DNA of 64,000 nt from a virus: IMG/VR virus record IMGVR_UViG_3300021420_000017, positions 64,001 to 128,000 of that record; one strand, given 5' to 3'. Of the stretch, positions 8,674 to 41,173 are shown piece after piece. The notes beneath the pieces were generated by a model that was given only the letters and a program-made list of their open reading frames with translations, was not told the origin of the DNA and did not search any database. A program made the translations under genes and the position numbers. Each line of letters begins with the position of its first letter. The stretch's first letter is position 1.

Positions 8674-9012
8674 GTGGCTTCAGTCAAGGTTCATGAACTC
8701 AAGTTCGGCGAGCTTCCTCGGATGCGAGACACAGCCGACAAGTGGGGCGGTCATGAGGACATCGCCGCCGCGCTCAAGGCCAACAAGGATGTCTGGACCT
8801 TGGTGGAACTCAAGGTCAAGACCGGGAAGGCAGTCCGGATCGCCACCCTGATCAAGACGGGTGTTGCTCCGGGATTTGCCGCTGACGAGATGGGTGAGTT
8901 TCAGGCATCTACTCGTCGGAGCAAGATCGAACCAGGCGCTGAAGGCACTGAAGAGGGGAAGTACTACGACGTCTACGCCCGGTATCACTTCACTGGGCCG
9001 ATCGTCAAGTAG
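8674..9012 (+). CDS. hypothetical protein
   Basis: RBS GAAGGAG, 112 aa. Confidence 0.65.
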   Translation: MASVKVHELKFGELPRMRDTADKWGGHEDIAAALKANKDVWTLVELKVKTGKAVRIATLIKTGVAPGFAADEMGEFQASTRRSKIEPGAEGTEEGKYYDVYARYHFTGPIVK

Positions 9013-9177
9013 GTAGGTACTGCTTCTCTTAGTCGGATCAGCCCGCAGAGGTATGGGCCAGCCGCTGAGAGAATAAAGGCGCGTTCCGTCCGGGTGCAGG
9101 ATGGTCGGGGGATCCCCGCCCCCGGGCGGAACGCGCGTTGTGTTTCCGTCGCCAAAACCCTTAAGGAGATACTCATC

Positions 9178-9627
9178 ATGACCGTGAGCCACCGTAGAGC
9201 GCGGCATTCCGCGATGCGCAAGATGCCGCTGGAGTTCCTATACTGCCGGGATCGCAGCATCGGCCACGACTGGGATGTGGGCCACCCCGAGACGACGTTC
9301 CAGTTCGGCGTGGTGACCAACCGCAAGGGCATGCAGGAGATCCTGCGCAAGTCCCGGTGCGAGCGCTGCCAGATGCTCCGAGAGGAGCACTTCAGCCACA
9401 TCGGGCCCAATGGCCGGGCCGTGAAGACGCACACCGTCTACACCGCCCCAGAGGGCTACAGCCTGCCCCAGGATCCGGATCTCGGGCCCGTGCGCTCAGC
9501 TGACGTCTGGGCCGAGCAGATGCGCCGGGCCAAGGTCAAGTTCGACCCGGCGAAGGTGACGGTCGCCCTAGGGGAAGAGACCGCCGCGCCGGTGCGCAAG
9601 ATTCGGCTCAAGAGTGTGAGCGCATGA
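9178..9627 (+). CDS. hypothetical protein (Cys/His motif)
   Basis: RBS AAGGAG. CRDRSIGHDW...CERC. Confidence 0.7.
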   Translation: MTVSHRRARHSAMRKMPLEFLYCRDRSIGHDWDVGHPETTFQFGVVTNRKGMQEILRKSRCERCQMLREEHFSHIGPNGRAVKTHTVYTAPEGYSLPQDPDLGPVRSADVWAEQMRRAKVKFDPAKVTVALGEETAAPVRKIRLKSVSA

Positions 9628-9761
9628 GCGCCAGGATCACCCTTCTTGCTGCCACCAAGTTCTATGAGCCCCCGGCGCACATACCGTGGTCGCCGGACTC
9701 CTCGGCCACTGGCGGGGAGGCATTGGCGGAGTTTGCCGGAAGAGCCTGTTCAACGAAATGA
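9624..9761 (+). pseudogene. thyX: stranded 5' fragment of thyX (45 aa)
   Basis: My translation: MSARITLLAATKFYEPPAHIPWSPDSSATGGEALAEFAGRACSTK*. Matches the actinobacterial ThyX N-terminus (PPxxPW...GGxALxEFAGRAC) and stops just before YQSW. Confidence 0.85.
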
Positions 9762-10330
9762 GTTTGGGAACAGTAGTCTCGCCCATCCCCAATAAAACCT
9801 TGGCCGAACGTCTCAAGCGACGTTTGATCCGACAGCCGAACGGGTGCCTGGAGTGGGCCGGATACATCTGCTCCCAGACGGGGTATGGAAAGATAGCGAA
9901 TACTCCAGGGGCACCTATTTCAGTTCATGTAGCCGTATGGATCGTGCAGGTTGGCCCTGTACCTGCGGGGCTCGTAGTCAGGCACAAGTGCGACAACAGA
10001 GCGTGTGGTGATATAGACCACCTCCTGGTCGGTACTCAGGCAGATAATGTTCGAGACATGGTTAGTAGAGGACGTACTAATAACTATGTAGAAAACAAGG
10101 TGTGCCCTGCTGGTCATAAATATGATGAGCAAGACAGCGAAGGTTTCAGAGGTTGTTCGGTATGTAGATTACGGAGAGCCAGGAAAGCTTCATTACAGCG
10201 GAGGATCGCTAGAGGTAAGGTGCCGCTTGGTTCTTACTGTCATGGCTGTTGGTTTCTCTCTACGAGGTGTCAGTGCAGGACTCTGTTGTTAGGCAATCAT
10301 CTATTAGGGATAGAGAGTCACACCACATGA
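9758..10330 (+). CDS. HNH homing endonuclease
   Basis: GCLEWAG...GYGKI...SVHVAVW...VVRHKCDNRACGDIDHLLVGTQADNVRDM, then CPAGH..CSVC. AT-richer than its neighbours; ATGA overlaps at both ends. Confidence 0.9.
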   Translation: MSLGTVVSPIPNKTLAERLKRRLIRQPNGCLEWAGYICSQTGYGKIANTPGAPISVHVAVWIVQVGPVPAGLVVRHKCDNRACGDIDHLLVGTQADNVRDMVSRGRTNNYVENKVCPAGHKYDEQDSEGFRGCSVCRLRRARKASLQRRIARGKVPLGSYCHGCWFLSTRCQCRTLLLGNHLLGIESHTT

Positions 10331-11079
10331 AAGTAACTTTGATAGCGAAGACAGAACTACTGCTAGATGCGGTAGCGGATTCAATGCAGGGTTTTCGGCC
10401 GGATCGTGGAGGGGGCGAAGGATTAGCTGAGGCCGCAGGAAGGTCCTGCTACCAGTCCTGGGATAGGCCCAACCCAGCCACCGCGACCAATGCGGGCTAC
10501 CTGGCTCACATCCTCGACGTGGCTCACCTCAGCGTGCTGGAGCACGGGAGCGCGAGCTACTACATCGAGGGCATCAGTCGGTCATTGAGCCACGAACTGG
10601 TACGACACAGACATTTTAGTTACAGCCAGCTTTCGCAGAGATATGTCGATAGTAACGACGTTCAGTTTGTAATGCCTCCCGAGGTAGTAGGGAACCAGGA
10701 GATAGAGAACATTTTTCAGGCCAGCTTCGCGGGTCAGATGGACGATTACAGCGATCTCATGGAATACCTGGCGGACATGCTCATAGACGAGCCGGGCAGC
10801 AAGACCGAGAAGCGCAAGCGGGCCCGTCAGACTGCCCGCGCGGTGCTGGGCAACTTCACCGAGACCAAGATCGTGGTCACCGGCAACTACCGGGCCTGGC
10901 GGCACTTCGTGCACATGCGGGCCACCGCTGGGGCGGATACCGAGATCCGCGCGCTGGCCATTCAGATCCTGCGCTCACTGCAGACCGTGGTTGCGCCGAA
11001 CGTGTTCAGCGACTTCGTGATCGAGCCTTACCTGGACACTGAGATCGCCACGTCGAGCAAGGGCGCCGAGTTCGAGTGA
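10327..11079 (+). CDS. thyX: flavin-dependent thymidylate synthase ThyX
   Basis: AGRSCYQSW, HLSVLEH, SRSLSHELVRHRHFSYSQLSQRY, TGNYRAWRHF, EIRALA. Confidence 0.95.
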   Translation: MKVTLIAKTELLLDAVADSMQGFRPDRGGGEGLAEAAGRSCYQSWDRPNPATATNAGYLAHILDVAHLSVLEHGSASYYIEGISRSLSHELVRHRHFSYSQLSQRYVDSNDVQFVMPPEVVGNQEIENIFQASFAGQMDDYSDLMEYLADMLIDEPGSKTEKRKRARQTARAVLGNFTETKIVVTGNYRAWRHFVHMRATAGADTEIRALAIQILRSLQTVVAPNVFSDFVIEPYLDTEIATSSKGAEFE

Positions 11080-12116
11080 AGACTGCCATGATTGGGCACG
11101 CCCATGAGGGCAAGCCGCTGATGGTGCTCACCAAAGACACCGACCTCACACTCGATGAGGCACTGGCTGGCCGGATCTTGCAGACCGAGGTCGGCTCGAC
11201 CCTGTACGGCGTGAGTGTCGAAGGCACCGACGATCGAGACGAGATGGGTATCTGCGTCGAGCCGCCTGATTACGTGGTCGGGCTGAAGCGCTTCGAGCAC
11301 TTGATCGTGCGCACCCAGCCAGACGGTGCGCGCTCGGGACCGGGCGATCTGGATCTGACCCTTTACAGCCTGCGCAAGTGGATGAAGCTCGCACTGGCGG
11401 GCAATCCGACCGTGCTCATGCCCCTGTTCGCGCCGGAGCCGAACTCGGTGATGGTCAACTCCGATGCGGGTCGAGCCCTGCGGGCCAATGCTCACCGCTT
11501 CGTCTCGGAGAGGGCCGCAGGATCCTTCCTGGGCTACATGACCAGTCAGCGAGCACAGCTCACTGGCGAGCGCCCGAGGAAGCATACCAATAGGCCTGAA
11601 CTGATCGAAAAGTATGGGTATGACACAAAGTTTGCATACCATACCATTCGTATAGGTCTTCAGGGTATTGAGTTCCTGAAGACCGGGCATATCACTCTCC
11701 CTATCCCCGAGTCGTCTCGCGAGAGACTATTGGATCTGCGCATGGGAGCTTTCGACCTGGAAGTCGCTCTGACCTGGATGCGAGCCGTCGAGGTGGGGCT
11801 GGTGAATGCCGCTGAGGGAGTGGCTGGCCAGCGAGCCGACCACGAGTGGGCCGACGAGTTCTTGACAACGCTTGGGGCTGGTGACATGACTGATCAGAAT
11901 GGAACCTACGATCCAGACGCGATTCTGTCCGATCCGAACTCGCTCCAGGTGCATCGGATGTATGCCGAGATCAATGTCGGCATACGGGATCGAGGCGAGC
12001 AGTGGAGTAAGTGCGCGAACTGCGGTGAGCCGTATCAGTGGACTGAGGACTGGAGCGAGTCGACAGTGTGCTCCCAGCGCTGCTTCGATGAGTTCTCCGC
12101 GTCTCTGTTTGAATGA
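11076..12116 (+). CDS. Pol-beta-superfamily nucleotidyltransferase with a C-terminal Zn-ribbon extension
   Basis: GSTLYG...DDRDEMG, YSLRKW...GNPT, RPELIEKYGYDTKFAYH. CANC...CSQRC after an internal Met at 11886. Confidence 0.8.
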   Translation: MKTAMIGHAHEGKPLMVLTKDTDLTLDEALAGRILQTEVGSTLYGVSVEGTDDRDEMGICVEPPDYVVGLKRFEHLIVRTQPDGARSGPGDLDLTLYSLRKWMKLALAGNPTVLMPLFAPEPNSVMVNSDAGRALRANAHRFVSERAAGSFLGYMTSQRAQLTGERPRKHTNRPELIEKYGYDTKFAYHTIRIGLQGIEFLKTGHITLPIPESSRERLLDLRMGAFDLEVALTWMRAVEVGLVNAAEGVAGQRADHEWADEFLTTLGAGDMTDQNGTYDPDAILSDPNSLQVHRMYAEINVGIRDRGEQWSKCANCGEPYQWTEDWSESTVCSQRCFDEFSASLFE

Positions 12117-12400
12117 GCGGCATGACGGACTCTGATCTTCCGGATTGGGTGGTCTTTCGCTTCAGCGACGATATGCCCGTGTCTCATCGGCCGCCGGACC
12201 TAGATGGGCTCTGGATCGATCGAAATGACGTGCCTTCGACGCAGTCCATCGAGGCCGCGCGTCGAGCCAGCGAGCAGGGGCGCCGCTATCTTGTAGGAGA
12301 GGCGGTTGCACATCCGACCGAGCGGCTGGAAGTCAGCGAGGACGGTCGGGTCGCGCAGGTCTGGGAGATCCGACCGCTCTGGAAGAGTGACGAGCAGTAG
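12113..12400 (+). CDS. hypothetical protein
   Basis: ATGA overlap, 95 aa. Confidence 0.55.
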   Translation: MSGMTDSDLPDWVVFRFSDDMPVSHRPPDLDGLWIDRNDVPSTQSIEAARRASEQGRRYLVGEAVAHPTERLEVSEDGRVAQVWEIRPLWKSDEQ

Positions 12401-37861: not shown

Positions 37862-38836
37862 ATGACCACCACGATGGTCCCCCAGGGCATCAAGCCGCCG
37901 ATGTCGTCTGACGACTATGTGAGCGCGATCTTGGCCCGCCACGAGGGCAAGAAGGCCTCCTCGTCCAGCAAGCTGACCGCCATCGCGCGAGTGCTCGCTG
38001 ATGAGGTCAGCGGCTTCAAGCGCCTGGGCGTCGGCATGATCGGCCCGATCCAGCTCAAGCTGCGCTACCAGGGCATCACCCGCAACGTGCTGGTCGAGGA
38101 CCCGGTGACCCCGGGCACCCCGGTCGAGTACGACGTGTGGGACGACCTGGGCCAGGCGTACGTGCTCTCGGGCCACGACGGCGAAGTCAATATCACGATC
38201 TTCGAAGGCAAGCGTGTGCGGGTCGACTTCTTCCGGATCGCGGCTCAGGCCCAGATCCGCAAGGAAGACCTGATGTACCTGCGCATCAACGCCGTCGAGC
38301 AGGCCCAGGACGAGACCAAGCAGTCGATCCTCAAGCAGGAGGACTCCCGGCTGATGGTCGTGCTCCAGGGCGCGCTGAACGACTACAGCACCCGCCCGGA
38401 TCACACGATCACCCCCAACCACACCATCACCGAGACCTCGGGTTACTTCACCCCGACCTCGCTGTACACGGCGGTGGCCCAGACCGACATGCACGAGCTG
38501 GTCGCCAGCCGCATGCTGGTCAACCCCTATGACTACCGGGACTTCTTCCGGTGGGACATCAACACGACTGGTTGGGCCTTCAAGGACCGGGTCGTCGCGG
38601 GTGAGACCATCACCAGCTTCGGTGAGTTCCAGTTCCAGCGCTCGATCATGGTTCCGCAGAAGACCATGTACCTGCTGCCCGAGCCGAACTTCCTCGGTGT
38701 CTTCCCCGTCCTCTACAGCCTGGACGTTGAAGAGAACCACGTGGTGGATCGCTTCATGCGGGGATGGGTGTTCGATGAGATGGTTGCACAAATTGTGCTA
38801 AATCCTCGTGGAATAGCAGCAGTCGTAAAGCCCTAA
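37862..38836 (+). CDS. major capsid protein
   Basis: 324 aa with extreme G/C-ending codon bias. MIGPIQLKLRYQGITRNVLVED...GWVFDEMV..LNPRG matches my recollection of cluster-C-like capsids. Confidence 0.85.
   Translation: MTTTMVPQGIKPPMSSDDYVSAILARHEGKKASSSSKLTAIARVLADEVSGFKRLGVGMIGPIQLKLRYQGITRNVLVEDPVTPGTPVEYDVWDDLGQAYVLSGHDGEVNITIFEGKRVRVDFFRIAAQAQIRKEDLMYLRINAVEQAQDETKQSILKQEDSRLMVVLQGALNDYSTRPDHTITPNHTITETSGYFTPTSLYTAVAQTDMHELVASRMLVNPYDYRDFFRWDINTTGWAFKDRVVAGETITSFGEFQFQRSIMVPQKTMYLLPEPNFLGVFPVLYSLDVEENHVVDRFMRGWVFDEMVAQIVLNPRGIAAVVKP
38719..38784 (+). repeat. 66-bp inverted repeat, left copy (inside the capsid gene)
   Basis: Base-by-base identical to the reverse complement of 41108-41173. 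Confidence 0.97.
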
Positions 38837-41107: not shown

Positions 41108-41173
41108 ACCATCTCATCGAACACCCATCCCCGCATGAAGCGATCCACCACGTGGTTCTCTTCAACGTCCAGG
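41108..41173 (-). repeat. 66-bp inverted repeat, right copy (intergenic)
   Basis: Exact reverse complement of capsid bases 38719-38784. Confidence 0.97.

Follow-up and report, generated by a model that had tools for sequence, protein, structure and literature searches.

A candidate homing endonuclease cassette with a replacement 5' end in the phage gene thyX

It is commonly stated that homing endonuclease genes can persist in essential genes only within self-splicing introns or inteins. In fungal mitochondria, a different arrangement has been described in atp6 of Allomyces macrogynus and in atp6, atp9, cox2 and nad3 of Glomus sp., where an endonuclease open reading frame (ORF) brings a replacement gene end and the native end is left stranded (PMC3630166). 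Mobile endonuclease ORFs that bring a foreign gene end also occur in Rhizopus atp9 and Mortierella cox2 (PMC3630166 and its reference 48). In phages, intronless homing by the free-standing SegF and other Seg/Mob enzymes is known from the T-even group (Belle et al. 2002, in the form in which it is cited in PMC2988022 and PMC12724721), and genes split by endonuclease insertion are represented by nrdA/mobE of Aeh1 and by gene 39/60 with mobA of T4 (PMC2988022). Here, we analyze a 64,000-nucleotide (nt) stretch of a virus genome, called the window throughout (positions 64,001 to 128,000 of the IMG/VR record IMGVR_UViG_3300021420_000017, 146,650 bp; coordinates are window positions unless a contig is named), in which an HNH endonuclease gene is lodged in thyX, the gene encoding ThyX. 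We consider it likely that this gene belongs to a mobile cassette, which combines an HNH_3 homing endonuclease gene, presumed to cleave thyX, with a replacement thyX 5' segment (an ATG and 41 codons of the N-terminal type A defined below) and is placed between the Cys and Tyr codons of AEFAGRAC/YQSW in a resident thyX.

The locus consists of three plus-strand ORFs within 9624-11079, both junctions of which are ATGA stop/start overlaps (ORF list). The first one (9624..9761; ATG at 9624, TGA at 9759-9761) is a stranded resident ThyX N-terminus of 45 residues, in which 42 thyX codons leading to GRAC are followed by STK and a stop codon (C-terminal end AEFAGRAC-STK). It bears the type-B signature (PW...GGEALAEFAGRAC), has a G+C content at third codon positions (GC3) of 0.70 and is annotated as a 45-residue gene on a 244-kb contig of the Joint Genome Institute (JGI), where the same genes are present. 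The second one (9758..10330; ATG at 9758, TGA at 10328-10330) encodes a 190-residue endonuclease with an HNH_3 catalytic domain (Pfam PF13392, E 2e-12, above the cut-off) that contains the conserved His and Asn residues, His76, Asn80 and Asn97 being invariant across five cassette HNH proteins (alignment A5). Its C-terminal half is rich in Cys and His and is without a Pfam match, and a whole-genome scan found it to be the sole HNH_3 gene of the 146.6-kb genome. The third one (10327..11079; ATG at 10327, TGA at 11077-11079) is a complete thyX of 250 codons (Pfam Thy1 PF02511, E 5e-50), the translation of which displays the ThyX signature RHRxxSxxxxSxR as the motif RHRHFSYSQLSQRY and aligns over residues 2-246 to the Mycobacterium tuberculosis ThyX structures 3gwc/2af6 (E 7e-77). 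An assembly artefact was ruled out, as an independent Logan assembly (L097, from SRR7094834) is 100% identical to the window locus over 6753 nt; this identity and the same genes on the 244-kb JGI contig establish that the structure is real. An earlier sequence-only reading of the window had described a 45-residue ThyX fragment ending at GRAC, an HNH gene and a complete thyX, linked by ATGA overlaps, and each of these elements is confirmed by the ORFs and the Pfam matches.

The complete thyX is a chimera, with a foreign type-A start and a resident body. Two types of ThyX N-terminus have to be distinguished: type B (...PW..D..GGxALAEFAGRAC), to which the stranded fragment belongs, is found in cellular actinobacteria and in many phage-like contigs, and type A (..TLIAKTE(F/Y)LADAAxxVMxGFRxDxxGGxALAEAAGRxC), to which the new N-terminus of the window belongs, is rare. 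The fragment and the new N-terminus are homologous yet distinct, with 39% identity (alignment A1). Residues 1-41 of the window ThyX share 59-68% identity with type-A proteins and 32-39% with P0002, P0003, P0005, P0009 and P0020, and it is among these same proteins that residues 85-250 have their best matches, the type-A proteins scoring lower. In a tree built on the core of the protein (about residues 64-250), the window sequence clusters with the type-B proteins P0002, P0003, P0005, P0009, P0012 and P0020 at 99% support in the Shimodaira-Hasegawa-like approximate likelihood ratio test (SH-aLRT) and stands apart from the other proteins with a type-A N-terminus. A single clade for proteins with this N-terminus was indeed rejected on the core by the approximately unbiased (AU) test (p 0.00014). 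Composition points the same way: G or C occupies the third position in 15/38 of codons 1-38 of thyX versus 40/46 of codons 39-84 (Fisher p 7e-6), and the GC3 of the HNH gene is 0.49 versus 0.85 for the upstream gene. The switch falls at codons 39-41, so that the change in composition coincides with the Cys codon at which the stranded fragment stops. Both the shift away from an AT-richer start and the claim that the element supplies its own start segment and so keeps the gene whole, put forward in the sequence-only reading, are hence upheld.

In the simplest description of the locus, ~700 nt would have been inserted into a resident type-B thyX, between its Cys and Tyr codons. The predicted cassette (9750..10449, plus strand) would comprise a short leader, the HNH gene and the foreign thyX start segment; its left edge was set by aligning the fragments with the new N-termini and its right edge by the GC3 switch. 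The foreign type-A codons 1-41 (10327..10449, plus strand) have their own ATG, which overlaps the HNH stop codon, and a GC3 of 0.40, and they are followed by the GC3-rich resident body, placed by the core tree (codons 42-250 and the stop codon, 10450..11079, plus strand). The stranded fragment has the AAT.FY and W.PD signatures in common with P0009 and P0012, members of the clade of the gene body, and its highest overall identity (62-64%) is to cellular-type N-termini. Within the body, a second patch of low GC3 covers codons 85-130 (10579..10716, plus strand), with 24/46 versus 106/120 downstream (0.52 versus 0.88; p 2e-6). The sequence-only reading does not mention this patch. The nearest proteins are P0009, P0096 and P0020 for codons 85-130 and P0002 and P0003 for codons 131-250, and the patch may reflect patchy conversion from another allele.

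The strongest evidence for mobility comes from two other phage contigs, L099 (NCBI metagenome) and L188 (Logan), which were found by looking up the contigs encoding the closest ThyX proteins and have the same fragment-HNH-thyX order. In both, the type-B fragment ends with GCC TGC TA(A/G) and is followed by a 27-nt spacer and then by the HNH gene, to which a type-A thyX is joined by an ATGA overlap. Alignment of the fragments and the new N-termini locates the junction within the Tyr codon after GRAC in all three loci, i.e., at the GRAC/YQSW codons to which the sequence-only reading had assigned it, and these different genomes thus have one insertion point, as a homing element should. The flanking genomes of L099 and L188 are unrelated and unalignable. 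Between the two contigs, the fragment is 72% identical at the DNA level, with third-position differences in 21/41 codons, and the rest of thyX is about 81% identical (61/194), versus 97% for the cassette, defined here as the spacer, the HNH gene and thyX codons 1-60 (23 mismatches in 700 nt; third-position differences 18/223). Third-position differences separate the cassette from the fragment (Fisher p 6e-10) and from the rest of thyX (p 1e-9). Its left boundary is sharp, between positions 1692 and 1701 of L099, and identity climbs toward the junction from both sides, as co-conversion would predict.

In this pair, the element is therefore more similar than its surroundings, another hallmark of homing elements, and the six-fold gap in divergence between the fragment and the neutral sites of its neighbor makes joint inheritance impossible. 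This gap implies that the cassette recently entered two different resident alleles or was exchanged between them, and the third-position contrast indicates that it is much younger than these alleles. With 97%-identical cassettes, 72%-identical fragments and unrelated flanks, we conclude that the cassette moves between resident thyX alleles at one fixed site. The pair also gives the exact boundaries of the cassette, which makes the homing idea directly testable, and two different resident alleles occupied at the same junction bear out the proposal that the stranded piece derives from the resident gene. As a separate observation, L188 has a second, unrelated HNH gene (NUMOD4 and HNH_3) just 3' of thyX (L188:3078-3635), and hence two nuclease genes near thyX.

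This comparison also bears on two other explanations. A one-off illegitimate recombination or partial duplication, with the HNH gene as a passenger and nothing site-specific or mobile about the locus, would suit the mosaic nature of phage genomes, the second, unexplained low-GC3 patch in thyX and the fact that the window cassette has no near-identical copy elsewhere. We nevertheless judge it improbable, since it would have to account for the same Cys/Tyr junction in L099 and L188, where the HNH is related and the new N-terminus belongs to the same type, as well as for near-identical cassettes embedded in diverged fragments and unrelated flanks. Equally improbable in our view is an old, vertically inherited arrangement in which the fragment ORF is under selection, for instance as a coupling leader for the translation of HNH and thyX or as a small peptide acting on ThyX. 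The unrelated flanks of L099 and L188, and a fragment far more diverged than the adjacent HNH gene, do not fit common descent of the block, and L108 and L189 (see below) manage without the fragment. Selection on the fragment would be favored by its uninterrupted reading frame in each of the three loci, by the 4-nt overlaps that connect the window genes one after another from 9178 to 12400, and by the predominance of third-position differences between the L099 and L188 fragments (21/33, and 11/12 in the last 22 codons); this bias, however, is equally expected if each fragment derives from a separately evolving working thyX. The fragment/HNH overlap is not conserved either: the ATGA occurs in the window only, and a stop codon and the 27-nt spacer take its place in L099 and L188, which leaves the translational-coupling leader of the sequence-only reading with little weight.

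That the fragment is an exon 1, spliced at the RNA or protein level to YQSW..., or a subunit assembling with a downstream piece, is extremely unlikely: HNH genes often reside in group I introns, short upstream exons are easily missed in phages (PMC10448857) and genes are known whose pieces are separated by an endonuclease gene, such as nrdA/mobE (PMC2988022), but here Rfam gives no match, the HNH ORF and the ThyX N-terminus fill the insert, the frames differ with intervening stop codons, and the downstream gene is full length, aligning to M. tuberculosis ThyX from residue 2 with no need for a second piece. Each of the three candidates was rejected on its own grounds. For a group I intron, a ribozyme core is missing from the Rfam searches (nothing was matched in 9000-11800 with a threshold of E 10, or in four related loci with a threshold of E 1) and the insert has no non-coding space, the HNH ORF taking 573 of the ~700 inserted bases and the rest encoding the ThyX N-terminus. 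An intein is incompatible with an HNH gene in another frame and with stop codons at both junctions. As for a gene in pieces of the nrdA/mobE type, the fragment corresponds to the protein region that thyX codons 1-41 also encode, which leaves nothing to reassemble. The element is thus intron-less, as had been read from the sequence, and is neither an intron nor an intein.

Returning to a homing cassette that carries a spare gene end, we propose the following mechanism. The nuclease would break or nick the cassette-free thyX alleles of co-infecting phages near the site, and the break would be repaired by copying the cassette-bearing allele, with the stranded fragment serving as the left homology arm and the thyX body as the right one. 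The first ~42 codons of the recipient would remain as a short dead-end ORF, while the new in-frame start segment would restore a full-length ThyX, so that splicing would never be required for this essential gene. As to the occupied allele, the downstream half is missing from the left copy of the site, and the upstream half of the right copy is changed (EAAGRSC versus EFAGRAC); with the site present only as two altered halves, this allele would be immune to self-cleavage. The insertion site lies within the most conserved N-terminal stretch of ThyX (alignment A1). Such conserved stretches are typical of homing sites. The layout of L108 and L189, in which a classical free-standing HNH gene is located 5' of a type-A thyX, would be a likely origin: a cut type-B allele may have been repaired with homology on the right side only, giving an illegitimate left junction at the break, and both arms would have been carried afterwards. 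Nuclease activity, cut position, immunity and the manner in which the three ORFs are expressed are inferred, and so are two claims of the sequence-only reading, namely that the HNH would cut intact alleles at this codon and that its insertion would destroy its own target.

Several points weigh against this proposal. The window HNH is only 34-39% identical to the group formed by its counterparts in L099, L188, L108 and L189, and its C-terminal half is different, the tail of the L099 group being helix-turn-helix-like, with only weak matches. For L099 and L188, identity to the window HNH is 37-38% (alignment A5), and about 42% over the shared N-terminal 93 residues (tblastn). As the window cassette is without a close relative, recent mobility is shown for the sister lineage only, and the window cassette is an old, diverged member of the family. 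Scans of metagenome, genome and viral collections with HNH proteins recovered many HNH_3 genes and no further thyX-linked copies, the only one adjoining thyX being that of L108; the cassette family hence looks rare. The group rejected by the AU test was set by N-terminal signatures, but the test was made after the tree had been seen. In addition, the cleavage site of a free-standing phage endonuclease can be distant from the gene that encodes it (PMC2988022), so that the cut may lie elsewhere than at the junction codon. Finally, the cassette could also be transferred by ordinary homologous recombination within thyX, for which the nuclease need not be active.

The distribution of the cassette among relatives is sporadic, as for other homing elements. 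Among the type-A thyX loci, three have the HNH gene and the fragment, two (L108 and L189) lack the fragment and have the HNH gene directly 5' of thyX, which it overlaps by the same 4 nt, and three (L098, L428 and L429) have neither. The thyX of L428 (L428:3001-3771) combines a type-A-like N-terminus with a core whose sister is a type-B protein (97% support); no HNH gene or fragment is found nearby, and a gene resembling a deoxynucleoside monophosphate kinase precedes it with a 4-nt overlap. It may be the chimeric ghost of a past invasion from which the nuclease gene has been lost. Such a patchy distribution fits the cycle of gain, decay and loss usual for homing endonuclease genes. Cultured phages gave no match to the window in a near-identity DNA search, contain no stranded fragment and have a closest ThyX that is 53% identical. 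The collections searched contain no close relative of this phage with which an HNH-less locus, as suggested in the sequence-only reading, could be compared. A search of viral contigs for the pattern TTCGCNGGNCGNGCNTGCTAR returned one chance match (L430), which is not a thyX.

Short proteins resembling the stranded fragment proved to be mostly genes truncated by contig ends, the three real ones being nonsense alleles without an insertion. In these three (L105:525-533, L106:788-796 and L107:411-419), an in-frame TAG or TAA replaces the Tyr codon of GRAC-Y-QSW and the rest of the gene is in frame; all three thyX genes are of the cellular type, and each lies on a short contig from a different metagenome. 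It is odd that the stop codons hit the junction codon of the cassette in 3/3 nonsense alleles, and sequencing error is possible, with L107 at ~2x coverage. One might imagine that the cassette family is a dedicated thyX parasite, the nuclease of which also recognizes the host thyX at the same AEFAGRAC/YQSW site, the phage damaging the host gene while carrying an immune copy and the stop codons being repair scars from the left edge of the cassette (TGC TAA / TGC TAG); we regard this extension as quite unlikely.

Regarding the surroundings of the locus, the upstream gene (9178..9627, plus strand; ORF list), which is of unassigned function and is a 149-residue gene in L097, has a stop codon that overlaps the ATG of the stranded fragment (ATGA), indicating that translational coupling already existed at the original start of thyX. 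The end of thyX likewise overlaps the next gene, and six successive genes in 9178-12400 are joined by 4-nt stop/start overlaps (ATGA or GTGA), a chain into which the cassette junctions fit. The gene 3' of thyX (11076-12116) encodes an RlaP-family nucleotidyltransferase (PF10127) with a Cys-rich C-terminal tail; among the viral contigs with an RlaP-like gene, which were sought as syntenic relatives, none has thyX nearby. Elsewhere in the window, a perfect 66-nt inverted repeat (38719-38784 and 41108-41173) flanks three minus-strand genes, one of which encodes a 322-residue protein made of repeated helix-turn-helix domains. These three genes come directly after a 324-residue plus-strand gene (37862-38836), and the four proteins gave no capsid or nuclease match in Pfam.

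The window locus and its relatives suggest that carrying a spare gene end is another workable solution for phages. Such cassettes create chimeric genes, and hence conflicting phylogenies inside one gene, and they leave short orphan ORFs that annotation pipelines label as hypothetical proteins.

Among known systems, HNH enzymes encoded in group I introns, such as I-HmuI, have in common with the cassette an HNH_3-type domain, a location within an essential gene at a conserved stretch and the proposed use of the gene flanks as homology arms. Unlike these introns, the cassette has no ribozyme, and gene continuity would be regained in the DNA itself, through a duplicated coding segment, instead of by splicing. 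As in nrdA/mobE and 39/60-mobA, a gene of the HNH family interrupts an essential phage gene in a critical region, with neither an intron nor an intein involved; in those systems, however, both pieces are needed and reassemble as subunits, whereas in thyX the upstream piece is redundant, the downstream gene being complete. With the Seg/Mob systems, the cassette shares a free-standing nuclease gene adjoining the gene whose nuclease-free alleles are its presumed targets, together with a proposed spread by break repair and co-conversion of flanking markers, and L108 and L189, with the HNH gene directly 5' of thyX, resemble this classical layout. Seg/Mob genes are nonetheless intergenic, not inside a coding sequence, and bring no substitute gene segment. 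The sequence-only reading had presented the arrangement as a third way, besides introns and inteins, to sit inside an essential gene; this was overstated, given the fungal mitochondrial ORFs with replacement gene ends (PMC3630166). No phage case with a duplicated gene end was found in the literature searched, the coverage of which is incomplete. As in the fungal mobile ORFs, an endonuclease gene interrupts a protein-coding gene and moves together with a replacement gene end, the gene becomes a hybrid and the native end is stranded, the inserted end being phylogenetically foreign and the stranded one matching the resident lineage. The fungal elements replace the 3' end, rely on LAGLIDADG or GIY-YIG nucleases and are often fused in frame to the host gene, whereas the window cassette replaces the 5' end, has a separate HNH_3 ORF with ATGA overlaps and resides in a phage. 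Because the 5' end is replaced, it must also supply the start codon; it is thus the mirror image of the fungal 3'-end replacement, for which a start codon and some 40 codons are enough in the phage. By this analogy, the thyX cassette would work like a mitochondrial mobile-ORF hybrid without being a member of that group, given its 5' end, its phage host and its HNH enzyme: the association of a nuclease with a replacement gene end is known from fungal mitochondria, and its 5'-end, HNH, phage form is the new element.

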